Assembly: GCA_018238545.1 (NCBI GenBank)
Contig: JABCTC010000002.1
Span: forward strand, 32,001-96,000
Length of the DNA stretch: 64,000 nucleotides
Source of the DNA: Candidatus Heimdallarchaeota archaeon
Lineage (GTDB): Archaea > Asgardarchaeota > Heimdallarchaeia > Heimdallarchaeales > Heimdallarchaeaceae
Reading direction: 5' to 3'
Under the pieces are notes generated by a model. The model was not told where the DNA came from and ran no database searches. It saw only the letters and a program-made list of their open reading frames with translations. Below, piece after piece: positions 24,737 to 41,989 of this stretch. The position numbers were made by a program, and so were the translations under genes. Every line of letters starts with the position of its first letter. Positions within the stretch are counted from its first letter, which is position 1.

Positions 24737-25522
24737 ATGAGTGTTCAAGCACCCGTATTTGTTAAAAAATACGAAGAAGTAACTAAAAAGAAGAATAGTA
24801 TCCTTAGTGTTGGTTTGGATCCAGCGATACCACGTCAAAGGGAAAAGAATATTATACCTACAGAGGATAGAATTAACTTCATGGAGACAATTATAGATCT
24901 GGTCGCTCCATATACAAGTGTAATCAAAATAAATCGTCAATATACTTTAGGATTAACTATTGATAAAATTCGTACAATTAACAGACAGATACATTCGAAA
25001 CAAATGCTTTCTATGTCTGACCACAAACTGGGTGACATAGGTTCTTCTAACGAATCAGCTATTTTCTGGTTTAAAGAGGAAGAATTCGATGCTTTTACAT
25101 TTAATCCCTATAGTGGTAATGTGCTTGAAGCGACAGAAATGGCTCATAAACTTGATTTAGGTATTATAGTACTTACATTGATGTCGAACCCTCAAGCTAT
25201 CCTACAAAAACAAGCAATGATACAAGGAAAACCTCTCTTTCAACATATTGCTAGTTTATGTAAAGCAGCTAGTTCAGACGGGTGTGTTATAGGGGCAACA
25301 GCACATGTTGAGTCATCTGATATTATAGAAATTAGAAAAATCGTAGGGGACAATACTATCGCTCTAGTTCCTGGTGTAGGTGCTCAAGGAGGAAGTGCTG
25401 AAACGTTACTTAAGATCTTTGGAACAAAAACTATGGTTAATGTAAGCAGAGGGGTAATCTATTCTCAGTCTCCAGAGGAAGAAGCGAAGAAAATACAAGA
25501 AATGCTTAATGAATTACTGTGA
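24737..25522 (+). CDS. pyrF: Orotidine-5'-phosphate decarboxylase (type with VGLDP)
   Basis: VGLDP, DHKLGDIGSS, MSNP, IGAT, PGVGAQGG, NVSRG. Confidence 0.92.
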   Translation: MSVQAPVFVKKYEEVTKKKNSILSVGLDPAIPRQREKNIIPTEDRINFMETIIDLVAPYTSVIKINRQYTLGLTIDKIRTINRQIHSKQMLSMSDHKLGDIGSSNESAIFWFKEEEFDAFTFNPYSGNVLEATEMAHKLDLGIIVLTLMSNPQAILQKQAMIQGKPLFQHIASLCKAASSDGCVIGATAHVESSDIIEIRKIVGDNTIALVPGVGAQGGSAETLLKIFGTKTMVNVSRGVIYSQSPEEEAKKIQEMLNELL

Positions 25523-25523
25523 A

Positions 25524-26132
25524 TTATAGATGTTTTTCTATTAATTTCTTGTCGTGCTCTGATATATATTCCTCATCTAATTCCAAACACAGTTTGAAAA
25601 TTTCATTTATTTTAATGAAGGAATGAAGTTTGATATTTAGCTCTACTAATTCCTCTAGATTGCTTTGACTTCGATCAATAAGTACAATCAGATTATTGAC
25701 GACAAAATTATTATCTCTTAACGCTAAAATTCCAGGTATCTTACTACTACCTGTTGTTATCAGATCGTCTATGAGTACAACACTTGAGGCAGATGGAATG
25801 CTTCCTTCAACTATTTTCTTCAATCCATGTTCTTTTGCTTGAGGTCTAACAATAATCGAGGGGATACCTAGTTTATACCCAGCAACTGCAGAAAAAGGAA
25901 TTCCCGCGACAGCAACTCCCGCTAGAGCATCAACATCATGTATGCTCTTGATTATATCAATATAGCAATCAATTACGAATTCGAAGGTTTCTGGGTATGA
26001 AGAAATCAATCTCAAATCTATATAAAACCAAGATTTCTTTCCTGATTTTAGTGTGAAATCACCATATTTCAAAATATTATTCTTCAAGAGAAGTTCAGTT
26101 AGTTTTCTTTTCTTAATTTCCATCATATGCAC
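25524..26132 (-). CDS. pyrE: Orotate phosphoribosyltransferase
   Basis: GDFTLKSGKKSWFYIDLR, KEHG, LIDDLITTGSS. Confidence 0.95.
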   Translation of the reverse strand: MHMMEIKKRKLTELLLKNNILKYGDFTLKSGKKSWFYIDLRLISSYPETFEFVIDCYIDIIKSIHDVDALAGVAVAGIPFSAVAGYKLGIPSIIVRPQAKEHGLKKIVEGSIPSASSVVLIDDLITTGSSKIPGILALRDNNFVVNNLIVLIDRSQSNLEELVELNIKLHSFIKINEIFKLCLELDEEYISEHDKKLIEKHL

Positions 26133-26135
26133 CCT

Positions 26136-27653
26136 TTATTCGTATTCTATTGTTCCAGGAGGTTTTGATGTTATGTCATATAGAACTCTATTGATGCCTG
26201 GAACCTTGTTTATTAGTTGATTAGATATCTCTTCTAACACTTCATAAGGTAGTTTGCTCCAATCAGCTGTCATTGCGTCAAGTGATTCCACTGCACGAAT
26301 AGCAAGCATGTATTCATACGTTCTTTTATCTCCCATAACACCAACTGATTTTATAGGAATTAGGGCTGGAAACACTTGCCAAAGAGAATCATACAATCCA
26401 TTTTCCTCTATTATTTGATGAACTACCACATCTGCTTTTTTTAAGATGTCAAGGCGCTCTTTTGTTATATCACCTAAAATCCTGATAGCTAATCCTGGTC
26501 CAGGGAAAGGATGTCGGTTAATGAATTTTTTCGGTATATCCAACATCTTGCCTATTTTTCTAACTTCATCCTTATAAAGATCATTAAGTGGTTCTACAAG
26601 TTTAAGAAGCATTTTTTCAGGAAGGCCTCCCACATTATGATGTGTTTTGATAACGTTTGCATGGTGACTAGGTTGGGCACTCTCAATTCTATCAGGATAA
26701 ATGGTGCCTTGTCCGAGGAAATCAAATTTTCCAATTTTATTGGCATTTTCCTCAAAAATCTCTATGAACAGATTTCCAATTATTTTACGTTTCTGTTCAG
26801 GATCTTTAACTCCCTTAAGAGCTTCAACAAATCTCTCTTCTTCGTTCACGGCAACGAAATTACTTACACCTAAATTGGAGAATATTGCTTTGACTTCTTC
26901 TGTATCATAATCTCTCATTAAACCAGTATCAACATAAATGAAGTGAGCATCAATACCTGCTCTAGCAAGCATAACAGCTGCTACAGTGCTATCAACCCCA
27001 CCGCTTACCCCCATTATTACTTTCTTGTCCCCCACAGTAGTTTTAATCTCATCTAACTTTTCTTCTACCCATCCTTCTAATTTCCATTCACTTTTGCAAT
27101 TAACAATTTTAAGAAAATTGTCTAGAATTTTATCCCCATTGGGTGTGTGAATAACTTCAGGATGAAACTGAACTCCAAAGATTTTCTTCTCGAGATTTTG
27201 ATAAGCAGCTATATTACAAATATCTGTGCTACCGATAGTTTCAAACCCTTCAGGTAAGGTTTTAACTTCATCAAAGTGAGACATCCAAGCTCTTTCTTCT
27301 TCCTCTAATCCCTCAAAAAGCGGTGATGATAAATTAAGTTTAACCATTTTTCTCCCATATTCTCTCTCTTCCCCAATATTTACCTCTCCTCCTAATGTTT
27401 GAATTATCATTTGATGCCCATAACATATTCCTAGAACTGGAACTTTTACATCATCAAAAAAATTGTCTTGTAACTTGGGTGATTCTTCTCTATACACATC
27501 ACCTGGACCACCCGATAAAATAAACCCATTATATTCGTCTGAAGGCTCATAAATTATCTCTGCATAAACTCCTAAATCTCGAATCCTTCTAGCAATTAAA
27601 TGACAGTACTGCCCACCAAAATCAAATATACCAATTTTATCCATTTTATTCAT
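26136..27653 (-). CDS. guaA: GMP synthase (glutamine-hydrolysing), single-chain
   Basis: DFGGQY, GICYG, QFHPE, SGGVDS, KTHHNVGGLP, PFPGPGL, KPPGTIEYE. Confidence 0.96.
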   Translation of the reverse strand: MNKMDKIGIFDFGGQYCHLIARRIRDLGVYAEIIYEPSDEYNGFILSGGPGDVYREESPKLQDNFFDDVKVPVLGICYGHQMIIQTLGGEVNIGEEREYGRKMVKLNLSSPLFEGLEEEERAWMSHFDEVKTLPEGFETIGSTDICNIAAYQNLEKKIFGVQFHPEVIHTPNGDKILDNFLKIVNCKSEWKLEGWVEEKLDEIKTTVGDKKVIMGVSGGVDSTVAAVMLARAGIDAHFIYVDTGLMRDYDTEEVKAIFSNLGVSNFVAVNEEERFVEALKGVKDPEQKRKIIGNLFIEIFEENANKIGKFDFLGQGTIYPDRIESAQPSHHANVIKTHHNVGGLPEKMLLKLVEPLNDLYKDEVRKIGKMLDIPKKFINRHPFPGPGLAIRILGDITKERLDILKKADVVVHQIIEENGLYDSLWQVFPALIPIKSVGVMGDKRTYEYMLAIRAVESLDAMTADWSKLPYEVLEEISNQLINKVPGINRVLYDITSKPPGTIEYE

Positions 27654-27665
27654 GTCCTAAATTAT

Positions 27666-28670
27666 CTAAGTTAAGAGTTCCTTTAATCTTCTTTGTCTCA
27701 TTGCTTGTTTTATCTCTCTACATATTCTTCGCGCCATACTCATTTCTTCATCAAATAGAAAACGTGAATATGGAGATCCGCTAACATAAAGAGTTGTTCC
27801 AGCAACTATCCTGCTTGTAAATTCAAAAGCAACAATTTCTTCTGGAGTAATGGCTAATTCTATGCAGAAAGGTCCTAGTAAACCAGGTGGGAATAATTTT
27901 TCTGCTGCTTCAACTAGTCTGTCTCCAAAGTCAAGTAATTCAGGAACTAATGATTCTCTAGCTATAAGAGGTTGATTGCCAACTACTTTGTAGCTAGGAT
28001 TTATTTTAAAATTGTTTTGCGATAATCTTCCTAAAGCATCCACATTTGTTTCATATCTCCTGTCAATTCCAAGCATCTCTACTCTATCTAGAATAATAGA
28101 ATGGAAATAATGCGGATACATTGTAACGCCAGTGATATATTCTTGAATCTGTGCTGCTTTGGCATCATCTTCAGAGATTGATCCAGCTGAAAGTAGTTCA
28201 ATTATTCTTTGTTCGTATTCGGATTGAGAAGAACAAAGGAAATAACCCAATCCTCCTTTTGCACCTGGAAACTTGACAATTGTTAGCCCATCAATTTCAT
28301 CTGAACTATATGATTTTGGAGTTCTAATATTAGCTTCCTGTAATAACTGATGATTTTTGTCTCTTACCCTCTCCCAGTGCATCCCTTCTTTGTTTCCGAA
28401 AACAGGAATCTGAATGTCAAGAGCTCTTTTTCCAAGAGTTGCAATAAGAGTCCCATGGGGTACAAAAATTTCATTCATTGAAGGTTCTTGAGTTAGCAAA
28501 TCTTCATAAGAATCTAGCGTTACAATTTCCTGTGCCACAGGATATCTGTTGTACAAATCTTCTTTCCCTTTAACACAATAGACCTTTGTATTGAACCCTT
28601 CCTGTTTTGCTCCATAAAGTATTTGGAGGGCAGAATGACTACCAATTGTTGAAATTATCAATATACTCAA
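27666..28670 (-). CDS. purP: Formate-dependent AICAR formyltransferase (FAICAR synthetase) PurP
   Basis: GSHSALQI, GAKGGLGYF, DRRYETNVD, VVGNQP, FEFTSRIVAGT. Confidence 0.9.
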   Translation of the reverse strand: MSILIISTIGSHSALQILYGAKQEGFNTKVYCVKGKEDLYNRYPVAQEIVTLDSYEDLLTQEPSMNEIFVPHGTLIATLGKRALDIQIPVFGNKEGMHWERVRDKNHQLLQEANIRTPKSYSSDEIDGLTIVKFPGAKGGLGYFLCSSQSEYEQRIIELLSAGSISEDDAKAAQIQEYITGVTMYPHYFHSIILDRVEMLGIDRRYETNVDALGRLSQNNFKINPSYKVVGNQPLIARESLVPELLDFGDRLVEAAEKLFPPGLLGPFCIELAITPEEIVAFEFTSRIVAGTTLYVSGSPYSRFLFDEEMSMARRICREIKQAMRQRRLKELLT

Positions 28671-28768
28671 GGAAACGCGAAATTAATCACTTTTTAATTT
28701 TTTAGTTTGATGTATATTCCTATGTTGTTCAGATATGTTGTGAAATTGTGTTATAGCAAGGTTTAATG

Positions 28769-28799
28769 AAAGACCAAGTGTTTAACTGATGCAAATGAC
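28769..28799. promoter_or_regulatory. Candidate purine-regulon operator, copy 1
   Basis: AAAGACCAA-N14-CAAATGAC, 99 nt upstream of the purP start (28670); identical motif and spacing at 30860. Confidence 0.6.
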
Positions 28800-28881
28800 G
28801 TTTGCAAATCCATGTAAAATGTGCTTCTTGTTTCATTATATGAGATAAAGTTGAACAAAGGCGTTGTTTAGGTTAATTTTT

Positions 28882-29976
28882 CTATGTCAAGATATATTTC
28901 AATCTATTTTGTTCTATTGCTTTCTTTATCTCCATGCTCACTCTTTTTCCTGAAGAAGTTGGTTGTCCCCAATAAACTGCCGAATATTGACTACCAATTC
29001 CCATAAAACTATTTGTTCCTCCACCCATTCTTGTGGATACATCAAAGACGATAAATTCATAATCTTTAGTAATCATCGTTTGTAAGGCAAACGGCCCTAT
29101 CATCCCTGGAGGATACAGATGCTTTGTTGCTTCAACAAAACGGTCACTCATGGGGTAAACATGTCTTAACATTGATTCTCTTAAGGTAACAGCATAGTTT
29201 CCAATTTCTTTCATTTCTTCATCGAATCCCAGCTTGATTTGCTGATTAGCTGGTAGTCTTACAATTCCATCCAAGTCAGTAACAAATCTTCTGTCTATGC
29301 CTAATAATTCTGATCTTTTGAATAATGGAGAATAGAAGAAGTTAAAATTGAAAGTAACTCCAGAAATGAATTCTTCAATAGATGCCTCGTGTAAATCTTC
29401 TTCAAGAATTGTTCCATTTTCTATTCGTTTTTCCAGTTCTTCCTCAAAATCCTCACGATTCTTAGCAACAAAGAATCCTCTCTCTACTCTCTGTTTTGCA
29501 TGATGAATCTTACATATGACAGGTCCATCGATTTCTTTAGCATTCTTGTAAACTTTTGGGTATCGAATGTTAGCTTCTTCAAGTATTCTGTAGTAGTTGT
29601 GAAATCCTGTTCTCTCTTCAGTCTTCAATAATTCCCGACTACCAAAAATAGGTACTTTGAATTCTTTTTCGATTCTATTGAATCCACAATAAACAACAAA
29701 GGATCTGTTAGGAATAAAGATACAACTCTTCTCGATTAATTGTTCTTGAATATCAAAAATATCTGAAAAATTGTCAACTACAATCATGTCATCAATAATT
29801 CGCGTATATCTATTGTAGGGTTCTTCTCTCCCCTTTTCTATAATAACAGCTGTTTTGAATCCGACTCGTTTAGCTCCATCTAGAACATCTAAAGCCGAAT
29901 GTGACCCTATTACTCCAATAGTTATTTCTTCTTGATTGTAGTTGTTTAATACATCTGTAATCATTTTATCACCCAA
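28882..29976 (-). CDS. purP: PurP-like protein (second PurP paralogue, ERGFF type)
   Basis: GSHSALDVLDGAK, PNRSF, ERGFF, GPFALQ, DVSTRMGGG. Confidence 0.88.
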   Translation of the reverse strand: MGDKMITDVLNNYNQEEITIGVIGSHSALDVLDGAKRVGFKTAVIIEKGREEPYNRYTRIIDDMIVVDNFSDIFDIQEQLIEKSCIFIPNRSFVVYCGFNRIEKEFKVPIFGSRELLKTEERTGFHNYYRILEEANIRYPKVYKNAKEIDGPVICKIHHAKQRVERGFFVAKNREDFEEELEKRIENGTILEEDLHEASIEEFISGVTFNFNFFYSPLFKRSELLGIDRRFVTDLDGIVRLPANQQIKLGFDEEMKEIGNYAVTLRESMLRHVYPMSDRFVEATKHLYPPGMIGPFALQTMITKDYEFIVFDVSTRMGGGTNSFMGIGSQYSAVYWGQPTSSGKRVSMEIKKAIEQNRLKYILT

Positions 29977-29981
29977 ATCCG

Positions 29982-30761
29982 TTAAGCGTCCTCTGGATAA
30001 GATTTTAACACTTTGAATGGAATTCTATTGAGTTCTGTTATCTTTCCCCAATGCTTTCCAACACCTGTAAGGATTATTACCTTGACTGGAACACCACTTG
30101 AACGACGAACAAGTTCAACTAAGGCTTTTTGAGTCGATCCTGACCTAATTACGTCATCCACAATCAATACTCGTTCATCATGTTTAATAAATTTCTCGGG
30201 AAGATAAATTGTTTCAATTCTTCCAGAAGTCATAGATTGAATGTCCTCAGCTATACATTCGGTTGACCCCAAAGGTTTTTTCCTACGGGCATAAACACAA
30301 TCTATGTTAAGTAGATGTGCTAGTGTCATTGCAACAGGTATTCCATCCACTTCAGCTGTAATTATCTTATCAACATCTCTTGGGATAATACCTTGTTGAA
30401 TGGCTAAAAATAGAATAGCTTTCAGTGTTTTTGAATCATTCAGTAAGTAAGTATTATTTACAGCTGTATTGCCAAAATTATCTGTCCATTCTCGAATATG
30501 ACTCCCAATTAAATCTTTGATAGTTAAACCTAAATCTTTGTTTTCTATCAATACCTTGAGAATCTCACTTTTCAATTTTGATTTGGGCAAGGCTTTTCCA
30601 TTAATGTATCGTGATAGATTTGCAATAGATACTTCTACATTTGATTTAGCTAAATAATCTTTCATAGATTCCAATGTATCAAAACCTTTGAAAGCCATTT
30701 TTAGAAGATTAAGAGTCATCAACTTTTCTTGAGCATCAATATAACTTTCCGCAGAACTCAT
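29982..30761 (-). CDS. HTH-phosphoribosyltransferase regulator (PurR-like)
   Basis: N-terminal HTH (SIANLSRYINGKALP) plus PRT domain (TAEVDGIP, LIVDDVIRSGST); located inside the pur cluster, divergent from purC. Confidence 0.8.
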   Translation of the reverse strand: MSSAESYIDAQEKLMTLNLLKMAFKGFDTLESMKDYLAKSNVEVSIANLSRYINGKALPKSKLKSEILKVLIENKDLGLTIKDLIGSHIREWTDNFGNTAVNNTYLLNDSKTLKAILFLAIQQGIIPRDVDKIITAEVDGIPVAMTLAHLLNIDCVYARRKKPLGSTECIAEDIQSMTSGRIETIYLPEKFIKHDERVLIVDDVIRSGSTQKALVELVRRSSGVPVKVIILTGVGKHWGKITELNRIPFKVLKSYPEDA

Positions 30762-30859
30762 TGATACAACGTTTTCTTTTCAAGTATTATATTTTTGGTT
30801 TAACACTAGACTTATATTAAAACTGCAGTAAAACTTCGTTGTGTTTTTAAGTAATTTAT

Positions 30860-30890
30860 AAAGACCAATTTGCATTACATTACAAATGAC
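30860..30890. promoter_or_regulatory. Candidate purine-regulon operator, copy 2
   Basis: AAAGACCAA-N14-CAAATGAC, 99 nt upstream of the regulator start (30761), in the divergent regulator/purC spacer. Confidence 0.6.
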
Positions 30891-31054
30891 CCTGTCACCC
30901 AGTCTGATTAATCTTCATGGCTATTTTCAAACAATATATATTTTTCACGTGTTCTAACTGCGCTTAGTCGCAATATTTATTAATGCTGTCCTTTATTGGT
31001 TGCAGATACAACTATCTGATAATTTGCAGTATGGTGTAAAATGGGGCATTTGCG

Positions 31055-32056
31055 TTGGTATCGTATTCGGGGAAAGCAAAAGATGTTATAGTACTGAATG
31101 ATGGAGAAGTTCAGATTAATTTTCGAGATTCAATATCTGCTTTTGATGGTGTTAAGAAAGAAGAGTTAGCTGAGAAAGGAATAACTAACTGTCTTACATC
31201 AGTAAAGCTATTTGAAATACTAAATGATTATGGATTTAATACACATTTCATATCGAAAATAAATGATTCACAATTACTTTGTAAGAAAGTAACAATATTG
31301 CCTGTTGAAGTTATATGCAGAAATATAAGCGCTGGAAGTTTTTGCAAAAGATATGGGTTTGAAGAAGGTATTAAGTTCAAACAACCGTTAATCGAGTTTT
31401 TCGTGAAGGATGACGAACACCACGACCCCCTCATAACAGAGTCAGTTGCTGTTCAAATGAAACTCATTACAAAGGATGAAGCAATTTTATTAGAAGCTAT
31501 TACAAGAGCAGTAAATGAAATTTTGCTAAAAATATTTGATTTGATTTCTTTACAACTTGTAGATTTCAAACTAGAATTTGGAAGAACAACTGAAGGTCAA
31601 TTATTACTCGCAGATGAGATTTCTGCAGATACCATGAGATTATGGGAGAAAAAAACAGGGGAGAAGAAAGACAAGGATAGGTATAGGCAAGATCTTGGAG
31701 ATGTTATAGTTCATTATAAAGATATTTTGGAGCGATTAAATTCTATTCAGAAGCTTCCTGAATATAAACCTTTGAGTACAGTTCAGGTGATTATAAAATT
31801 AAGAAAATCTGTTCTTGATCCTGCTGGTGAAGTGATATTTCGTTCTCTTTCCAGAAAAGGATTCAAAAGAATTGAATCAGTGAGATTGGGTAAAAGTGCA
31901 GAGATTGTTTTCAATACAGTACCTTCATCTGATTTACAATCAGAGATAGAAGAGATATCAGAAAAGATCCTTTCTAATCCTATAATTGAGGATTTTGAAT
32001 TGAAGATACAACATCATTCAGAAAAAAGCGAAAAAGAACACTTTCAAGAAGAATAG
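31055..32056 (+). CDS. purC: SAICAR synthetase fused to C-terminal PurS
   Basis: SGKAK, FRDSISAFDG, EVICRN, VDFKLEFG, ADEISADTMRLW, DKDRYR; then a PurS domain VIIKLRKSVLDPAGE...VRLGK...LSNPIIEDF. Confidence 0.92.
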   Translation: MVSYSGKAKDVIVLNDGEVQINFRDSISAFDGVKKEELAEKGITNCLTSVKLFEILNDYGFNTHFISKINDSQLLCKKVTILPVEVICRNISAGSFCKRYGFEEGIKFKQPLIEFFVKDDEHHDPLITESVAVQMKLITKDEAILLEAITRAVNEILLKIFDLISLQLVDFKLEFGRTTEGQLLLADEISADTMRLWEKKTGEKKDKDRYRQDLGDVIVHYKDILERLNSIQKLPEYKPLSTVQVIIKLRKSVLDPAGEVIFRSLSRKGFKRIESVRLGKSAEIVFNTVPSSDLQSEIEEISEKILSNPIIEDFELKIQHHSEKSEKEHFQEE

Positions 32057-32064
32057 GTGACGGT

Positions 32065-32751
32065 ATGCAAATAGGGGTTACCAAATTTCCAGGAACTAAC
32101 AATGAACAAGATGTTCTTAGAGCTTTGAAAAGTTTAAATGTCAAAGGAGAACTAATCTATCCCTGGGAAGAAAAGAAGCTGGAAGATTTGGATGCTTTAG
32201 TTCTAGCAGGTGGATTTTCTTATGGAGATTATCTCAGACCTGGGGGTATTGCTGCTCAATCTCCAGTTGCAGAAAAACTTATCGATTTTGAGAAAAATGG
32301 TAAGTTTATCATAGGAATATGTAATGGATTCCAAATATTATGTGAAACAAAAATTCTTCCAGGTGTACTGACAACTAATCTATCAACTAAATTTATCTGT
32401 AAGTGGGTAAATATTAAAACTGAGACTGCCCGCAGTCCCCTTTTAAAGAACTTAGCTCCAATAATAAAGATCCCTATTGCTCATTATGAAGGTAGATACT
32501 ATCATAATGCTAGTGGGATTAAGAAAATTAATACTGAAGATTCTGTAGCTTTTAGATATTGTAACGAACAAGGTGAAATTACTCAAGAAAGTAATCCCAA
32601 TGGATCGATGGAAAATATCGCTGGAATTGTAAATGCCAAAGGTAATATTTTAGGCATGATGCCACATCCTGAACGAGCTAGTTTTGATTATTTAGGAACG
32701 GATTTCGGGAAACAAATTTTTGTAAATCTAATAGAGGAAATAAAATGCTAA
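32065..32751 (+). CDS. purQ: FGAM synthase glutaminase subunit
   Basis: FPGTN, GGFSYGDYLR, GICNGFQIL, NPNGS, MMPHPER. Confidence 0.96.
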   Translation: MQIGVTKFPGTNNEQDVLRALKSLNVKGELIYPWEEKKLEDLDALVLAGGFSYGDYLRPGGIAAQSPVAEKLIDFEKNGKFIIGICNGFQILCETKILPGVLTTNLSTKFICKWVNIKTETARSPLLKNLAPIIKIPIAHYEGRYYHNASGIKKINTEDSVAFRYCNEQGEITQESNPNGSMENIAGIVNAKGNILGMMPHPERASFDYLGTDFGKQIFVNLIEEIKC

Positions 32752-34922
32752 CAACAGAAGAATATAGTAGAATTCTTGATGTATTAGAAAGAGAGCCCAA
32801 TAAGGGAGAAGTAGCTGTTTTTGAAGCTATGTGGTCTGAACATTGCTCTTACAAATCTTCAAAGAGATGGTTCCACCTATTCAATGTAAAAGCCCCATAT
32901 GTCGAACTTGGGATTGGAGAAGGTGCTGGTTTAATAAATCTTGGAGATGATTTACTTGTTGGAATAGGGTTAGAAAGCCATAATCATCCGTCTGCAATCT
33001 CACCCTATGATGGTGCGGCAACAGGTGTTGGAGGAATTATTAGAGATATATTATCTCAAGGTTGCAAACCTATTGCAATTCTAGATGCTATTAGATTTGG
33101 GGAATTAGAAAAATCTCAACACTCTCAGTATCTCTTAGAGAACGTTGTTCGAGGTATTTCGTTTTATGGTAATTGCTGTGGAATTCCTACAGTTGGAGGA
33201 GAGGTAGAGTTTGCACCACAATTTGAAAATAATTGTTTGGTAAATGCAATGTGTGTAGGGGTGGTTCAGAAAAGCAAAGTGGTGAGAAGTATAGCTGCAA
33301 AACCAGGTTCATTTCTTGTTCTTTATGGAGCAAGAACTGGAAGAGATGGAATTCATGGTGTTTCTTTTGCTTCCAAGGATTTGAGTGATAAAAGCGATAG
33401 AGATCGACCTGCAGTGCAAATCGGAGATCCTTTAATGGAGAAAATACTTATTGATGTTACTTTGGAGTTAGTAGAAAAAGAACTCTTAGATGGATTACAA
33501 GATTTAGGAGGAGGGGGATTGAGTTGCGCAGTATCTGAAATGACACACAAAGGAAATACTGGAGCAATAATCAGGTTGGAAGATATACACCTTCGGGAGG
33601 ATGACATGGAACCTTGGGAAATATTAGTTTCTGAATCTCAAGAAAGAATGTTAGCAGTAGTAGAATGTGATAAGTTAGATGAAGTTGTAAGTATTCTAAA
33701 CAGACAAGATTTGACCTATGGAGTAATTGGTGAAGTTACAGATAATAGTCATTGTATTGCGTATTCTAGAGGAGAAAAAATTGTTGATTTACCAGTGGAC
33801 TTGATAGTAGATGGGTTCCCAGAACCGGAGAGAATCACTGAAAAACCAGATTACCTAAAAGAAGAAGATTCCGTTGTACCTGATTTTGAAGATTTAAATC
33901 AAGAAATTATCAAGCTTTTATCCTCTCCAAATATTGGAAGCAAAGCCTGGGTATATCAACAATATGATCAACATGTTCAAACGCAAACAGTAGTTCCTGC
34001 TGGTTCTGATGCAGCTGTATTGAGACTTGATAATGGAAAACATATTGCGCTCTCATTAGATTGCAATTCATTTATGGTTTATCTTGATCCATATAATGGA
34101 ACTGCAAACAGTGCAGCTGAAGCGATGAGAAATTTGATTGCAACTGGAGCTAAACCATTAGCATTTGTAGATTGCTTAAATTTTGGCAACCCAGAAAATC
34201 CTGATTCTTATTGGCAATTCGTAGAATCAATAAAGGGTTTAGGGCAGTTCTCACACGATTTTAATATCCCTGTTGTTGGTGGAAATGTTTCATTGTATAA
34301 TGAAAGCTTCATCGAGGATAAGAGAGAAAGAATCAACCCTTCACCAACAATAGGTATGATTGGTATAATTGAAAACCCTGAAAAACTGATTAAAAACAGC
34401 TTTCAAGAAAAAGGAAATTTTGTAGTGACTATCGGAGAGTGTGACGGCAATCTTAATGGTTCAGAATTTTTAAGAAATAATTTTGGTATTCTTCAAGGCA
34501 AAATATCACAATATGATAAACAGAAAGAAGTATCTTCTCGAAAAGCAATTGAAAATTTAAATCAATCTGGATATATTAAGAGCTGTCACGATGTCTCTAA
34601 TGGAGGTCTAATTACAGCTTTAGCTGAAATGACTTTCGAAAATGAAATCGGTGTAAAATTAGATCTTTTAGAAAATGATTCCTTTATAAAACTCAAACTA
34701 GAAGAATTTCTTTTTGCTGAAACACCTTCTAGATATGTTATAGAAATACATTCAGAGCATATTGAAAGTGCAACTAAAATAATTGAAGGTAAGGTTTCTT
34801 TCAATATTATTGGGAAAACTAATTCTCAACCAAAAATAGAAATAGAGAACTTTCTAATATTGGAGATTAAACAACTGAAAAATGCGTGGAACAAGGCTAT
34901 TTCACAATATATGGAGGATTAA
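32745..34922 (+). CDS. purL: FGAM synthase subunit PurL (small type)
   Basis: [53 protein letters not shown]. Confidence 0.96.
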
Positions 34923-34924
34923 AA

Positions 34925-35335
34925 ATGATTGACATTATAGCAGGAAGTAAAAGTGATGAAAAGATTGTTCAGAAAGCAGTCACGATTTTAGAAAAGTATG
35001 ACACATCATTCAATGTATATTATATCTCAGCTCACAGAGACCATGATAAATTGGTAGAGACAATTAAAACATCTTCAGCGGATATATTCATCTGTATAGC
35101 TGGTTTAGCAGCTGCTCTACCTGGAGTTGTAGCATCGTTAACTGACAAACCTGTAATAGGGGTCCCTGTTTCTGCTGCCTTAAATGGATTAGATGCATTA
35201 CTGTCTATGGTTCAAATGCCTAAAGGGGTACCAGTTGCAACCGTAGGAATTGATAATGGTCAAAATGCTGCTCATTTAGCTGTTAGAATTTTACAATTAA
35301 AAAGAAAGGAAGGAATAAGTGAAAAGAATGACTAA
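34925..35335 (+). CDS. purE: AIR carboxylase / N5-CAIR mutase PurE
   Basis: [35 protein letters not shown]; likely ATG start 34925. Confidence 0.93.
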
Positions 35336-36365
35336 AAATACAAAACCTCCTTCAACATATGCAGAAGCTGGAATTGATTTGTCGTTAGAAGCTCAAATTC
35401 TAAAAACAATCAACTATTATGTGAAAAAATCCTTTCAATTTGGTGATGTTGTTGCAAAGGAAGGACATTACGCAAATATGATTAAATTAGGTGATATCGG
35501 TTTAGCTTTAACTTCAGATGGGGTTGGTACTAAATTACTTATTGCTCAAGATGTAGGGAAACTTGACACAATAGGAATCGACTGTGTAGCAATGAATGTT
35601 AATGATTTACTTTCAATGGGAATTCCTCCAAAAGCATTTGTTGATTATTTAGCAATATCTGAATTGAATAAATCGCAGATTGAAGCGATAATTTCTGGAA
35701 TTTACAAAGGCTGCGAACTGTCGGGCATTCCCTTATTAGGTGGAGAGCTAGCAACTGTACCAGAGTTGTTGGTTGATAAGAAAAATGCTTTTGATATCGC
35801 AGGAACTGCCTTGGGAATAGTTTCTCTTGATAGTGTTATTGATGGGTCAAAAATTAAACCTGGTGACTCTGTTATAGGGATCACAAGCAGTGGATTACAT
35901 TCAAATGGATATACTATTGTAAGAAAAATACTTTCAATCAAATACACACTAAGTGAAAGTTTTCCATGGGGAAGAGAAGTATTCGAAGAACTCTTGGAAC
36001 CAACGAGGATTTATGTTAAAGCAATACTAGATCTTATAGAAAATTGTTCAGTGTCAGGTTTAGCTCACATTACTGGGGGTGGTCTTAAGAAATTATTCAG
36101 ATTAACTGATTATGGTTTTGAATTGACTAATTTCCCAAAACCATTGAATATATTTGAGGAAATTCGTATATTGGGTAAAATTTCTTTCCAAGAGATGTTT
36201 TCAATTTTCAACATGGGAATTGGTTTTGTTGTTGTTGTTCCAAAAGAAGAGGAAGAGAAAGCACTTGAAACATTAAATAAACATTTCAAAACCATCAGAA
36301 TCGGAGAAATAGTTGAAGATCCATTAGTATCTATTTCTAAGTATAATGTGTTATTTACAAGGTGA
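35319..36365 (+). CDS. purM: AIR synthetase
   Basis: [50 protein letters not shown]. Confidence 0.96.
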
Positions 36366-36366
36366 A

Positions 36367-36972
36367 ATGATGAAAGTAGCTGTTCTAATATCTGGAAGAG
36401 GCTCTAATCTTCAGGCAATACTTAAAGCTGAAAATAATAAGAAGTTAGGCAATGCTGAAATTAACTTGATTGTCAGCAGTAACCCCAATGCAGCAGGTTT
36501 AGAATTTGCAAAAAATTATAACAAATACACAATTGTTCTTGATCCAAAGAACCATGCTGATAAAACTAAATATGATTCCAAATTAAAATCTATATTGCTT
36601 GAAAATAATATTGAATTGATAGTTTTAGCCGGGTTTATGAGAGTTTTATCACATTCATTTGTTGACTATTTTAAGAACCAAATTATCAATATTCACCCAT
36701 CCTTACTCCCAGCTTTTCCGGGTTTAAATATTCATGAAAGGGTATTAGACTATGGAGTGAAATATTCTGGATGTACAGTTCATTTTGTGAATGCAGAAAT
36801 TGATGGAGGGCCTATCATTGCCCAAAGAGTGGTTGAAGTGTTAGATGGGGATTCACCTGATTCATTAGCAGCCAGAATTTTAGTCAAAGAACATATTCTG
36901 CTACCAGAAGTGATTAAGAAAATTTCAGAAAAGAAGATTAGTGTAAATCAAAGACGAGTGAAGGTAAATTAA
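36367..36972 (+). CDS. purN: Folate-dependent GAR transformylase
   Basis: SGRGSNLQA, LAGFMRVL, NIHPSLLP, GCTVHFV, DGGPII, EH; likely start 36367 or 36370. Confidence 0.95.
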   Translation: MMKVAVLISGRGSNLQAILKAENNKKLGNAEINLIVSSNPNAAGLEFAKNYNKYTIVLDPKNHADKTKYDSKLKSILLENNIELIVLAGFMRVLSHSFVDYFKNQIINIHPSLLPAFPGLNIHERVLDYGVKYSGCTVHFVNAEIDGGPIIAQRVVEVLDGDSPDSLAARILVKEHILLPEVIKKISEKKISVNQRRVKVN

Positions 36973-36973
36973 G

Positions 36974-38371
36974 ATGTGCGGTGTTTTAGGTATAAATGGA
37001 CCAACAACACTTGGTCAAGGTAAAGTTTTGCTTCAAATGCTTACACATAGAGGACAAGATGCAAGTGGAATTGGATGGATTGAAGAAAAAACAAGCAATA
37101 TTAAAATTATAAAGAAAGATAGTTATCCAGATTTGCTAGAATTAGATGAAACTAAAGAAACTTCTAATTTAATTGGATCTACAAGATATCCTACATTTGG
37201 AACAAGAACTGATAGTTCTAATATAGAAAAATATGCACAACCTTTTACCTTCAAAACCAAGAATGGAACATTAGTAATAGTACACAATGGAAATATCACC
37301 AATATTCATAGTATAACAACTAAAAGCTATGAAAGTGATACAGAATTCATTGTTGAGTTTCTTGGAAGTTTACTAAATAAAACTCAAGGAAATCTAAATG
37401 AATCAGTCAAAATGTTTATGGAAAAAGTGGATGGAAGCTATTCAATTATAGGGACGTTGGATGAAACACAATTTTCTTTCAGGGATCCAAGGGGTATAAG
37501 ACCTTTGGTAATTGGACGGAACGAAAATATTACTGTTATTAGTTCAGAAAGTGTTGTTCTTCAAAATCTTGGTATTGAAAATATTAGAGATATCCAACCT
37601 GGAGAATTAATTGTTTGCAAAGAACAAGATATCCAGAGTTTTCAGATTTTAGTAAAAGATCATGCACACTGCATGTTTGAGTATGTTTACTTTGCTAATC
37701 CATGTTCAATTATCGAAGAGCGACTAGTTTATGATGTTAGGTTGGATTTAGGAAAGGAACTAGGATTAAGAATAAAGGAGAATAATCTGGAAATTGATTA
37801 TGTTGTTCCTGTTCCTGATACTTCAAGACCTGCAACACAAGGTGTATCCGAAGTATTGAATATACCTGTACGAGAAGCCATTATCAAGAACAGATATCTT
37901 CAACGTACCTTTATCATGAAAAGCAAACAAGAACGAACAAAAGTTGCTAAAAGCAAATATCTCTATACAGCTAAATATATCAAAAATAAAAACATCCTGG
38001 TTGTTGATGATTCAATAGTTCGAGGTTTGACAAGTCAAAAAATCGTCAAGGATTTAAGAAAACTAGGAGCTAATAAGATATATTTTGCAGTAACTTGTCC
38101 TGCAATAAGATTTGCTTGTTATTATGGTATAGATTTTCCAACTGATGAAGAATTGATTGCTTCAGGTCACACAGTAGAAAAAATCAAGGAAGTTCTTGAT
38201 GTTGATGGAGTATTTTATCAGAGTATTGATTCATTAAAAACTGCAATCGGTTTCTCTGATTTATGTACTGCTTGTTTATCTGGAAGTTATCCAACTCCTT
38301 ATGCTCAAGAAATTAGAATCAAGTATTTGAACGGCGAATTAAAAGGTAGAAGTCATTATGAAGAGGTCTAA
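36974..38371 (+). CDS. purF: Amidophosphoribosyltransferase
   Basis: N-terminal MCG, HRGQD, HNGN, CMFEYVYF, VDDSIVRG, CYYGID, CTAC. Confidence 0.95.
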   Translation: MCGVLGINGPTTLGQGKVLLQMLTHRGQDASGIGWIEEKTSNIKIIKKDSYPDLLELDETKETSNLIGSTRYPTFGTRTDSSNIEKYAQPFTFKTKNGTLVIVHNGNITNIHSITTKSYESDTEFIVEFLGSLLNKTQGNLNESVKMFMEKVDGSYSIIGTLDETQFSFRDPRGIRPLVIGRNENITVISSESVVLQNLGIENIRDIQPGELIVCKEQDIQSFQILVKDHAHCMFEYVYFANPCSIIEERLVYDVRLDLGKELGLRIKENNLEIDYVVPVPDTSRPATQGVSEVLNIPVREAIIKNRYLQRTFIMKSKQERTKVAKSKYLYTAKYIKNKNILVVDDSIVRGLTSQKIVKDLRKLGANKIYFAVTCPAIRFACYYGIDFPTDEELIASGHTVEKIKEVLDVDGVFYQSIDSLKTAIGFSDLCTACLSGSYPTPYAQEIRIKYLNGELKGRSHYEEV

Positions 38372-38373
38372 AA

Positions 38374-39627
38374 ATGTCTGATAAGGTTCTGTTAATAGGT
38401 AATGGTGCAAGAGAGCATGCAATAGCGAAAAAAATTGTAGAAAATGGGGGGGCCTTATATTCTTATATGTCAAGAGAAAATCCTGGGATAGCTGATTTAT
38501 CCAAAAAATTCCGTATTGGTAAACTCGATGATTTCACTAAACTAAAGAAATATAGAAATGTCGATTATGCAATTGTAGGGCCTGAAAACCCCCTTTCTGA
38601 AGGCATAACTAATTACTTGGAAGATAAACTAAAAATACCAACTTGTGGTCCAAGAAAAGAAGTAGCAAAAATAGAGTCGAGCAAGATTTTTACTCGATAT
38701 TTACTTGATGCATATGATATACCAGGAAATATTCCTTATACGATTTGCAGATCAATTGATGATTTAGAAGATGCTATTCACGAATTTGGCTTGGAAATAG
38801 TTATTAAACCAGATGGTTTAACTGGAGGGAAAGGTGTAAGAGTTCATGGAGATCATTTCACCTGTTTTAAGGGTGTGAGAGATTACGCAAAACAATTACT
38901 AGCTCAGGATACAGAATTTCTTGTTGAAGAAAAGATTAAAGGAAAAGAGTTTTCATTACAAGTTTTTACTGATGGAAAATCGATAACTCCTATGCCATTG
39001 GTTCGAGATTATAAAAGGGCCTACAATGGAGAAAAAGGACCAAATACTGGATCTATGGGTTCGTATAGCTTACCTTCTCATGATTTGCCGTTTTTGTCAG
39101 AGAAGGATATCCAATCTGCGATTGGAATTTTAGGGAAAACAATTAATGCACTGAAAAAGGAAACTGGAACTGATTATAAGGGAATATTATATGGTCAATT
39201 CATGAAAACAAATGGCAAAATTCATGTGATTGAATTCAATGTAAGATTTGGTGATCCTGAAGCTATTAACGTTTTAAAACTTCTCAAAACAGATTTCAAT
39301 TTAATCGCTCAACAAATAATTGATGGGACTCTTGGTAGAACAGAATTTTCTAATCAAGCTACTGTCTGTACATACCTTGTTCCAAAGGGATATCCAACGG
39401 ATCCTAAAGAGAATAGACCTATCAAAGTTGATACTAACATGAATGCTGATTTATACTATGCTTCAGTATTTAGAGAAAAAAAAGAAATCAAAACAACAAA
39501 AAGTAGAGCTATTGCAATAATTGAAACAGGGTCAAATCTAGAAGAAGCAAAACAAAAAATTAATGATAATATAACAAAAATAAAAGGAGATCTCTTCTAT
39601 AGGAATGATATAGGCGTTCTTTTATAA
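38374..39627 (+). CDS. purD: Phosphoribosylamine-glycine ligase
   Basis: GNGAREHA, GPE, ESSK, GLTGGKGV, DYKR, GPNTGSMG, EFNVRFGDPE. Confidence 0.96.
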   Translation: MSDKVLLIGNGAREHAIAKKIVENGGALYSYMSRENPGIADLSKKFRIGKLDDFTKLKKYRNVDYAIVGPENPLSEGITNYLEDKLKIPTCGPRKEVAKIESSKIFTRYLLDAYDIPGNIPYTICRSIDDLEDAIHEFGLEIVIKPDGLTGGKGVRVHGDHFTCFKGVRDYAKQLLAQDTEFLVEEKIKGKEFSLQVFTDGKSITPMPLVRDYKRAYNGEKGPNTGSMGSYSLPSHDLPFLSEKDIQSAIGILGKTINALKKETGTDYKGILYGQFMKTNGKIHVIEFNVRFGDPEAINVLKLLKTDFNLIAQQIIDGTLGRTEFSNQATVCTYLVPKGYPTDPKENRPIKVDTNMNADLYYASVFREKKEIKTTKSRAIAIIETGSNLEEAKQKINDNITKIKGDLFYRNDIGVLL

Positions 39628-40101
39628 TTTACGATTTAGATATTTTTGTTCCAGTAATCGATCACAATATACACATCTTAAGATAAGTGGATCCTTCGAA
39701 ACAACATCAAACGAAGACACTATTGGTTCATGAGCATTTGATACGCAATTTGGATTAACACAGTCAACGAAATCTTCTACATGATTAGGAACCTTTAGAT
39801 TTTGTTTTTCTTGAACTTTATAATCTACAATAATGTTTACAGTTGCTGTTGGGGCAATAAAGGAAAGTTTCTGTGTATCTTGTGGTGTAAGAGCTTTTCC
39901 TCTTATTTTTACAACGTCTTTTAGTTTCATCTTTTTAGACGCAACCCTCATAGCTAATGCGACAGTATAAGGATAATTAGAATCTATACCAAGAATTTCA
40001 AGAATCTTCAAAGCCTTACCTGGGGGTATTCTATCTATAACTGTGCCATCTTCGATTTTTGTTACTATCAACTTTTCACTATTTTCACTCATTTTAATCA
40101 A
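39622..40101 (-). CDS. pyrI: Aspartate carbamoyltransferase regulatory chain
   Basis: IEDGTVIDRI, CVNPNCVS, CVYCD Zn site. Confidence 0.95.
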   Translation of the reverse strand: MIKMSENSEKLIVTKIEDGTVIDRIPPGKALKILEILGIDSNYPYTVALAMRVASKKMKLKDVVKIRGKALTPQDTQKLSFIAPTATVNIIVDYKVQEKQNLKVPNHVEDFVDCVNPNCVSNAHEPIVSSFDVVSKDPLILRCVYCDRLLEQKYLNRKL

Positions 40102-41011
40102 TTCCTAAATATATTAGAATTAAAGCCATTCTTACCCAAACACCATTAAGTGCTTGCTCAAAGTATCTGGAATGTTTGGTTTTATCAATGGAATAATCAA
40201 TCTCATCCACACGGGGAAGAGGATGTAAAATGATAAATCTGTCCTTAACGTTTTTGATGTCTTCTGTGGATATTTGATAAACTCCCTTAAGCCTTTCATA
40301 ATCAACAGGATCTGGAAATCGCTCTTTTTGAATTCGCGTCATGTAAAGAACATCAAGATCGGAGATGATATCTTTAAGATTCTCCTCAATATTATATTTG
40401 AATCCATTTTCCTTTAATCTCAAAGCTACATTCTTTCTTAGTCTAAGGGCAGGAGGAGCAATCAAATGAAGATCAATGTTTTCATACTTAGCCAAAGCGA
40501 ATAGAAGTGAAGGGATGGTTCTTCCATAGAGTAAGTCACCCATCACACCAATACTCAAATTATCAATTTCCTTAAACTCCTTTTTAATTGAGTAAAGGTC
40601 AAGTAAAGCCTGAGTTGGGTGCTCTTGCGAACCTGTTCCTCCTGATATCACTGGAATTGAAGCAAAGTTTTTAGCTATCTCTCCTACACCCTCTATATAG
40701 TGTCTTATGACTGCAATATCAGAATAAAGATTAATCATTCTTATCGTATCAGATATACTTTCACCCTTAACAGCGCTACTTACTTTAGCACTAGTAAAAC
40801 CTAATATTTGTCCTCCTAGCCGTAGCATTGCACTCTCAAAAGAAAGTCTAGTTCTTGTGCTTGGTTCAAAGAACAATGTTCCAAGGATTTTTCCTTTACA
40901 CTTATCTGCAAATTGATCAGGGTTTGATTCTATTTTAGAAGCAAGAGAAAAAATCTGTTCAATAAAGTCTTTGGAAATAATTCTTGTTGAGAATAAATGT
41001 TTTGGTATCAT
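40094..41011 (-). CDS. pyrB: Aspartate carbamoyltransferase catalytic chain
   Basis: FFEPSTRTRLSF, KGESISDT, HPTQALLD, RIQKER, HPLPR. The likely start is ATG 41011 (ORF track 41110). Confidence 0.96.
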   Translation of the reverse strand: MIPKHLFSTRIISKDFIEQIFSLASKIESNPDQFADKCKGKILGTLFFEPSTRTRLSFESAMLRLGGQILGFTSAKVSSAVKGESISDTIRMINLYSDIAVIRHYIEGVGEIAKNFASIPVISGGTGSQEHPTQALLDLYSIKKEFKEIDNLSIGVMGDLLYGRTIPSLLFALAKYENIDLHLIAPPALRLRKNVALRLKENGFKYNIEENLKDIISDLDVLYMTRIQKERFPDPVDYERLKGVYQISTEDIKNVKDRFIILHPLPRVDEIDYSIDKTKHSRYFEQALNGVWVRMALILIYLGID

Positions 41012-41170
41012 TTTTGTACCTTTTTTCCGAAAAGAGTAAAAAACAACTAAGTTATAAAAGATGTGATGAAACAGAGAAAATTTGCAAAATAATGTAAAAA
41101 CTATTTCCAACGAGATAGTTTTTGTGAAACCTAAAACAAGGATTAAATATGAAAAAACAATCTTACATCT

Positions 41171-41989
41171 ATGAGTACTCCCCTTCTTACTGATTTTGTA
41201 GACAAATATGCTGATGTTGTTAAGAAAAAAAACAGCATTTTATGTGTAGGTTTAGATCCAGCGTTGCCAATTCAGAGAATGAGGAAAGTAATTCCAAATG
41301 ATGACAGACTCGAATTCATGAAAAGAATAATAGCTGATGTTGCACCATTTGCAAGCGTAATTAAAATGAACAGACAATACCTAATAGGTCTTACTGCGGA
41401 TGAGATACGACAACTAAATGTTTTGATACATCAACAAGGTATGCTTTCTATAGTTGATCACAAACTTGCAGATATAAGTTCCTCAAACTCTTCTGCTATT
41501 TTCTGGATAAAAGAGGAAGGTTTCGATGCTTTTACCTTGAATCCTTATGGAGCGAATATCGAGGAAGCTACAAGAATGGCTCATGAAAAAAAACTCGGGA
41601 TAATTGTAGTAACCCTAATGTCAAACCCACAAGCGATAATTCAAAAACTGCTTAACATATACGAAAATCCCTTCTTTTTACATGTTGCGGAAATATGTAA
41701 ATTCGCTAAATCGGATGGTTGTATGATTGGAGCTGGAAGACATATTAAATTAACAGATATCGCCCAAATTAAACAATCTATAGGAAATAATGCAGTTGCC
41801 CTAGTTCCTATACTAGGTCAACATACAGAAAGTGCAAAGCATACAATTTTGCATTTTGGAGATAAAACACTAGTTAGTGTTGGTGGAGCAATTTTATACT
41901 CTGATAATCCCCCGTTAAAAGCCAGAAAATACCAAGAACAATTTAATGCTTATAGAGAAAAAGTAAGTCAGAAAAGTTTAGGAATTTAG
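41171..41989 (+). CDS. pyrF: OMP decarboxylase paralogue with altered phosphate-binding motifs
   Basis: CVGLDP, DHKLADISSS, MSNP retained; PILGQHTE and SVGGAI replace PGVGAQGG and NVSRGV. Confidence 0.8.
   Translation: MSTPLLTDFVDKYADVVKKKNSILCVGLDPALPIQRMRKVIPNDDRLEFMKRIIADVAPFASVIKMNRQYLIGLTADEIRQLNVLIHQQGMLSIVDHKLADISSSNSSAIFWIKEEGFDAFTLNPYGANIEEATRMAHEKKLGIIVVTLMSNPQAIIQKLLNIYENPFFLHVAEICKFAKSDGCMIGAGRHIKLTDIAQIKQSIGNNAVALVPILGQHTESAKHTILHFGDKTLVSVGGAILYSDNPPLKARKYQEQFNAYREKVSQKSLGI

Follow-up and report, generated by a model that had tools for sequence, protein, structure and literature searches.

The window analysed here is a stretch of 64,000 nucleotides from a Candidatus Heimdallarchaeota genome (contig JABCTC010000002.1, positions 32,001 to 96,000). 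The subject of this work is a 20-bp dyad, ATTTGCA-N6-TGCAAAT, which lies upstream of purine and pyrimidine genes in the window, together with a candidate regulator gene (29982-30761) whose product joins a helix-turn-helix (HTH) to a phosphoribosyltransferase (PRT) domain. The genome of the window (G000; other genomes and their loci carry G and L numbers) is metagenome-assembled, 3.63 Mb long (3,628,557 bases) with 34% G+C, and its close protein relatives are named Candidatus Heimdallarchaeaceae or Heimdallarchaeota. An earlier note on this DNA had pointed to a bipartite repeat, AAAGACCAA-N14-CAAATGAC, before two minus-strand genes as the possible operator of a purine regulon, and the repeat is present, exact, at 28769-28799 and 30860-30890. 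The features of the locus discussed first are listed below (bits and ranks are those of the genome-wide scan described later).

27666..28670, minus strand: purP paralogue 1 (probable start 28661), followed by guaA and pyrE
28769..28799, minus strand: copy 1 of the bipartite repeat; in the gene sense, GTC with the half-site ATTTGCA, 14 nt, TTGGTCTTT, then CATTAAAC
28800..28819: P3, a weaker palindrome (plus strand GTTTGCA-N6-TGTAAAA); 12.5 bits, rank 36
28882..29976, minus strand: purP paralogue 2 (formate-dependent FAICAR synthetase family), probable ATG at 29964
29982..30761, minus strand: candidate regulator of 259 amino acids (putative XRE-type HTH, linker and type I PRT domain)
30853..30862: TATA-like word, sense TCTTTATAAAT, abutting P2 and overlapping box AAAGACCAA; conserved in the five closest genomes
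30860..30890, minus strand: copy 2 of the bipartite repeat, equal to palindrome P2 with its flanks
30868..30887: P2 (ATTTGCA-N6-TACAAAT), in the divergent regulator/purC spacer; 20.2 bits, rank 3; in 13 of 13 loci
30976-30983: purC TATA-like word TTTATTAA, conserved, with P1 about 38 nt downstream
31022..31041: P1, 14 nt before the purC-purS start; 19.3 bits, rank 4; in 13 of 13 loci
31055..39627, plus strand: purC-purS fusion, purQ, purL, purE, purM, purN, purF and purD, tightly packed
41080..41099: P4, in the spacer between pyrB and a second orotidine monophosphate (OMP) decarboxylase gene; 22.2 bits, rank 2

The 210-nt spacer between the two purP genes carries copy 1, and the 293-nt divergent spacer between the regulator gene and purC carries copy 2, which agrees with the earlier placing of copy 2 upstream of purC-purD. 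The gene layout given at that time was incomplete: purP paralogue 2, which is packed against the regulator gene, co-transcribed with it and situated between it and copy 1, had been overlooked. A distance of 99 nt to the start codon had been claimed for both copies. It holds for the regulator gene; for purP 1 the distance is probably 108 nt, because the orthologues of four other species (L006, L008, L009 and L011) have a stop codon that leaves only the equivalent of 28661 as a start. The first TTG of the purP 1 open reading frame (ORF) is at 28670, and the next candidate, the TTG at 28661, is most likely the true start.

In the upstream regions of about 20 genomes of the genus (Heimdallarchaeaceae), the element that is kept is the 20-bp dyad. 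The HTH-PRT gene was found in 21 of the 23 other genus genomes (52-95% identity). All 12 loci in which it stands divergent from purC have exactly two dyads in the spacer, and so has the locus of G015 (at most 3 mismatches). P1 and P2 are 141-155 nt apart in all 13 loci, with P2 nearer the regulator gene and P1 about 20 nt before the purC start. The chance level for the dyad search was about nine matches in roughly 65 kb of flanking sequence. A relative from another family of the order, whose regulator is 36% identical, has a 14.8-bit site 40 nt before the regulator gene. The weaker palindrome P3 abuts copy 1, directly upstream of it in the gene sense, and occurs at the same place in G010 and G002; it is absent from more distant species, and a metagenome pattern scan anchored on it gave 9 matches, all in unrelated DNA. 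The sequence at 28790-28809 reads TGCAAATGACGTTTGCAAAT on the plus strand and GCAAACGT in the gene sense. The latter resembles the half-site of the Escherichia coli PurR PUR box, which contains GCAAAC, and this likeness is probably coincidental.

A matrix built only from the sites of species with a regulator at most 86% identical was scanned over G000 (7.3 million positions). Besides the palindromes of the window (P4, P2 and P1 at ranks 2 to 4, P3 at rank 36), the scan returned a site before guaB at rank 10. Seven of the 12 matches of at least 15 bits were intergenic, compared to 15% expected (P about 6e-4). Three relatives (G016, G010 and G002) retain P4, and sites are also present in the pyrF spacers of G012, G022 and G015. 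The guaB site lies on another contig, 50 nt before the called start (the true guaB ATG is 21 nt further on), and 11 of 14 other loci of the genus, among them loci of species without a purC match, have a site of at least 11 bits between -59 and -70; a site before guaB had been expected, and the dyad is there. A simple count of TTTGCA-N6-TGCAAA with different spacers revealed no genome-wide excess, and the dyad signal appears only when position and conservation are taken in. The three IF-2B-family genes of G000 have no upstream site. The purine regulon centred on the HTH-PRT gene, as envisaged before, stands as a candidate nucleotide regulon, but one that also reaches pyrimidine genes.

Across 46 distinct sites, departures from the consensus were one-sided in 74 cases and matched on both halves in 10. 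Such one-sided decay fits a protein reading two half-sites and not a hairpin, and an RNA or DNA hairpin was rejected on this ground. Rfam gave no match on 27000-32000. The Rfam result and the independent decay of the two halves support the earlier preference for a DNA site over an RNA leader.

Pfam detected only the PRT domain in the regulator of the window, with neither PuR_N nor HTH_3 (PF01381). HTH_3 was detected in the Thermococcus homologue P0056 (28.1 vs. a cut-off of 23), which aligns column for column with the window protein. In a 25-sequence alignment, R51, Y52, G55 and P59 of the HTH (R-Y-x-x-G-x-x-x-P, in the N-terminal part) are invariant and VLIVDDVIRSGST, the loop that binds the phosphoribosyl group, is conserved; DDVIRSGST, the loop for the 5-phosphate and ribose, is also kept. 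The genus shows almost no variation in the recognition helix, which matches the constancy of the half-site. In the AlphaFold model of the regulator (pLDDT 92.7), helices 30-39 and 46-53 match the HTH, the C-terminal 180 residues match adenine phosphoribosyltransferase (APRT) structures (template modelling score 0.84 on target), and the whole chain was aligned by Foldseek with B. subtilis PurR (1O57). The best solved match of a family profile (25 members) was the PRT domain of PurR (residues 102-235, E 9e-22), ahead of xanthine phosphoribosyltransferase (XPRT, 65 bits) and APRT (60 bits). No curated model, of enzyme or regulator, reached its cut-off, and this holds for all of the APRT, XPRT and HPT models: TIGR01743 (PurR) reached 60 bits vs. 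258.7, in the PRT part only, the GfcR model NF045507 reached 23.1 bits vs. 300, and the nearest sequence model, NF006328, reached 144.8 bits vs. a curated cut-off of 184, over residues 12-254 with the HTH region included. The PurR-like architecture described in the earlier note is confirmed insofar as an HTH is joined to a PurR-related PRT domain, but the DNA-binding domain appears to be of XRE type, where PurR has a winged helix. The regulator differs from PurR in its DNA-binding domain and putative operator and stays under the family cut-off. It is an analogue of PurR in architecture and not a member of its family; nor is it a GfcR.

The HTH-PRT family occurs in at least 372 loci, in Asgard lineages, Bathyarchaeia, Thermococci and others. 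In 33 of 67 distant loci (L088-L154), the gene immediately downstream of the homologue is of the IF-2B family (ribose-1,5-bisphosphate or methylthioribose-1-phosphate isomerases); these loci belong to Bathyarchaeia, Baldr-, Odin- and Helarchaeota and Hecatellales. This neighbour points again to phosphoribosyl metabolism.

In the divergent spacer, the blocks that the five closest genomes keep are P1, the purC TATA-like word, P2, TCTTTATAAA with ACTTAAAAA, and the ATG-proximal AACCAAAAATAT. Reading of the upstream sequences revealed a T-rich TATA-like word 0-4 nt after P2 in most species. In G014 and G020 this word is a putative core promoter, because it lies about 30 nt before the regulator ATG. 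In G000, the TATA box of the regulator gene may be TCTTTATAAAT or the ATG-proximal AAAAATATAAT.

The analysis shows the motif, its conservation and ranking, and the architecture of the protein; the binder of the dyad, its ligand and the sign of control are inferred. The dyad probably marks the promoters of the purine-plus-pyrimidine supercluster and of guaB, and its most likely binder is a dimer of the 29982-30761 protein, which would also control its own operon. Almost all of de novo purine synthesis, and a large part of the pyrimidine pathway, is served by three or four spacers. The regulator dimer would bind the dyad through its two XRE-type recognition helices, and the PRT pocket would take a phosphoribosyl ligand that alters DNA binding (by analogy with PurR, phosphoribosyl pyrophosphate (PRPP) is the first guess). 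P1 is placed after the purC TATA-like word and before the start codon, a position that would suit repression. P2, P3, P4 and the guaB site are upstream of putative core promoters, where control could be of either sign. The roughly constant distance between P1 and P2 suggests that they may cooperate across the purC promoter.

Several observations weigh against regulation by the HTH-PRT protein through the dyad. Adjacency of dyad and regulator gene is not universal: six genomes (G023, G011, G009, G007, G008 and G005), all among those without a purC match, have the gene with no dyad beside it. Outside the genus, the homologues are not beside pur or pyr genes. In G000, purA and purB, which had been expected in the regulon, have no dyad upstream, nor has prs, and the top-scoring match of the scan sits within an unknown ORF. 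The position of the site relative to the promoter varies between sites. The pyrophosphate loop has Asp (EVDGIP) at the position of Lys in PurR (ATKGIP), and PRPP is therefore uncertain as the ligand. Finally, the composite origin proposed below for the bipartite repeat does not fully account for the 17/17 match between its two copies in G000.

Some of these points would suit a dyad that is the true operator of another transcription factor, with the HTH-PRT protein being an enzyme or regulating something else. The six species without an adjacent dyad are consistent with this, as are the distant homologues, half of which adjoin an IF-2B-family isomerase gene and not pur genes, and the label of the nearest NCBIfam model (adenine phosphoribosyltransferase). 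We nevertheless consider it unlikely. Thirteen loci of the genus, and one from another family, have the dyad next to the gene. Within the genus the recognition helix hardly varies, in keeping with the constant half-site. All enzyme models are below cut-off here, and an enzyme would have no need of an HTH. Architecture and gene context together argue for a regulator.

Regulation by the HTH-PRT protein through the dyad can tentatively be set in a wider frame. The HTH-PRT proteins may be widespread archaeal phosphoribosyl-sensing regulators mislabelled as APRT, of which the Heimdallarchaeaceae member would run a purine, GMP and pyrimidine regulon via the dyad, and the relatives in Bathyarchaeia, Baldr-, Odin- and Helarchaeota would control the IF-2B-family gene (ribose-1,5-bisphosphate or methylthioribose-1-phosphate isomerase). 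We regard this extension as plausible, and hold it less firmly than the regulon of the window itself.

The bipartite repeat is largely a composite, the by-product of a dyad half-site and an adjacent promoter-like word. P2 lies inside copy 2, where CAAATGAC is the outer end of a half-site and the supposed spacer is the remainder of the dyad. Copy 1 has one good half-site (ATTTGCA) and no recognisable right half-site. The box AAAGACCAA is specific to the closest relatives and abuts the TATA-like word; in its sense form, TTGGTCTTT, it is probably the edge of a promoter element of the B recognition element (BRE)/TATA type that abuts the operator. Relatives keep only the palindrome-derived part of the repeat and the TCTTTATAAA word. 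At copy 2 the GTC of box 1 is unique to G000, and box 2 is altered in G010 and G016; across the five closest genomes, variation falls on TTGG in box 2 and on GTC in box 1. At copy 1, box 2 is kept in G010 and not in G002. The nearest relative, G010, has no significant bipartite word common to its two spacers. Footprinting across relatives, which had been proposed as a check of the repeat, found the dyad kept instead.

In the whole of G000 the two copies are the only exact ones and the next best match has 2 mismatches; the genome scan that the earlier note had suggested yielded no third copy up to 1 mismatch. The near-matches elsewhere in G000 (by mismatch count) have neighbour genes unrelated to nucleotides. 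The 9-mer AAAGACCAA is present in 71 copies genome-wide vs. 76 expected, seven of them intergenic. The word TTGTGTT is present 21-23 nt (start to start) gene-ward of each copy, as claimed, and is not invariant, with a C at 28749 in the strains of two public DNA runs. Among the differences listed for the contigs of four DNA runs, the strain variants seen in two runs leave both copy 1 boxes and P3 intact and alter one spacer base and TTGTGTT; with only 5-7 differences available, they are too few to count as evidence. A decayed promoter duplication was ruled out, because the upstream regions of purP 1 and the regulator gene are at background identity outside both boxes (34%, ungapped comparison) and the 14-nt spacers of the two copies have the same base at 2 of 14 positions. 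When the two intergenic regions were simulated with a first-order Markov model, 5 of 3000 trials gave an exact bipartite match of at least 17 (P about 0.002, in a test that is post hoc).

In G006 (L006) an exact 15-mer, ATTCATTTTTCATTT, is common to the promoter regions of the regulator gene (about -68) and purP 1 (about -60), its distance from the start being almost the same in both (P about 0.01); it is not shared in the sister species G004. With it, the same pair of promoters shares sequence in a second, independent instance, which is an unexplained puzzle.

The shared boxes could owe their existence to chance, or be the trace of a short gene conversion in the G000 lineage, and be functionless themselves. 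The exact match is found only in G000, its ATTTG part is explained by the dyad half-site, and the 15-mer of G006 hints at occasional exchange between the same promoter regions. Such an origin is improbable all the same: conversion followed by decay should not leave spacers alike at 2 of 14 positions between perfect boxes, and the simulation makes chance unlikely, post hoc though it is. That AAAGACCAA-N14-CAAATGAC is itself the paired-box operator of the HTH-PRT protein, like the Bacillus PurBox, is very doubtful, for although a 17/17 match with equal spacer length and divergent spacers is the pattern expected from selection on two boxes, the simulated P value agrees with it and the strain variants of two runs spare both copy 1 boxes (over 5-7 differences only), the repeat has just two genomic copies, its 9-mer is not enriched, its boxes vary or are missing in the relatives as described, the two spacers of G010 have no such word in common, and the purC, pyrB and guaB sites have the dyad and lack the boxes. 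As a largely composite element, the bipartite repeat is by itself of minor importance.

Further nucleotide genes of the window are the following.

plus strand: pyrD, pyrK, pyrC and pyrF, before the pyrE-guaA-purP 1 block
25524-26132, minus strand: pyrE, in the same minus-strand block as guaA and purP paralogue 1
26136-27653, minus strand: guaA, directly after purP paralogue 1
39622..41011, minus strand: pyrI-pyrB, with the probable pyrB start at 41011
41171..41989, plus strand: second OMP-decarboxylase-family paralogue

By the ORF rule pyrB spans 40094-41110, and its Pfam match begins at residue 37; the start is most likely the ATG at 41011, the ORF-rule start being too far upstream. The OMP-decarboxylase paralogues at 41171-41989 and 24737-25522 are 56% identical to each other. 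Close orthologues of the second paralogue were found only in G016, G010 and G002; the other species have one copy. Elsewhere in G000, a dyad with two mismatches (contig C47, 465-484) stands 77 nt before an ORF (561-1760) for a 399-residue protein, which has some nine hydrophobic segments and matches nothing in Pfam or NCBIfam. This protein is possibly a transporter and a regulon member.

No match to purC (SAICAR synthetase) was obtained in about ten of the 23 genus genomes, with G010 as the positive control. The genomes concerned (G023, G011, G009, G008, G005, G001, G007, G015, G017 and G013) are 80-90% complete, one of them in 20 contigs. They keep the regulator gene, divergent from pyrF and beside pyrC or pyrK, and they keep the guaB dyad. 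These species may be purine auxotrophs. In the guaB of G009, G011 and G012 (L066, L069 and L064), the match to IMP dehydrogenase comes in two parts (residues 3-309 and 307-481) within one open frame of 746-941 amino acids, which suggests a large in-frame insertion, possibly an intein.

If the HTH-PRT protein does act through the dyad, archaea would have their first described regulator dedicated to nucleotide metabolism, and protein and dyad would form the first operator-regulator pair proposed for an Asgard archaeon. The pair is testable, with one purifiable 259-residue protein and a 20-bp site in four or five natural copies. A widespread database label would be corrected, more than 370 loci being annotated as a salvage enzyme. 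A PRT sensor would also have been coupled to DNA binding independently, with a DNA-binding domain other than that of the Firmicutes PurR.

No description of the HTH-PRT family or of an ATTTGCA-N6-TGCAAAT operator was found in literature searches, in line with the earlier remark that no operator had been described for this archaeal family. The closest sequence model, NF006328 (PRK08558), is labelled adenine phosphoribosyltransferase, and the Heimdall protein is under its cut-off. PurR of Bacillus subtilis and Lactococcus lactis (TIGR01743; PDB 1O57, 1P4A and 7RMW) is likewise built of a DNA-binding domain at the N-terminus and, at the C-terminus, a type I PRT domain that does not look enzymatic, and its DNA binding is controlled by PRPP through a known mechanism (PMC8789054; family comparison in PMC10838023). 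As with PurR, the Heimdall gene lies among purine genes and the sites come in pairs. Unlike PurR, with its PuR_N winged helix and PurBox, the Heimdall protein appears to be of XRE/Cro type and its putative operator is the dyad; moreover, the host uses an archaeal TBP/TFB promoter and the regulon reaches pyrimidine genes. The only characterised archaeal HTH-PRT regulator is GfcR of Haloferax volcanii, a transcription factor with an HTH and a catalytically silent PyrE-like PRT domain, which binds to the promoter of its own gene and uses the former PRPP pocket to sense phosphorylated sugars (PMC10838023). GfcR is of orotate PRT descent and serves sugar catabolism, whereas the PRT domain of the Heimdall protein falls in the branch of PurR and the adenine/xanthine PRTs. 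Escherichia coli PurR (LacI family, 16-bp PUR box) is from an unrelated protein family and has an unrelated effector (hypoxanthine/guanine); it too has a palindromic operator before purine, pyrimidine and guaBA genes, placing them under joint control.

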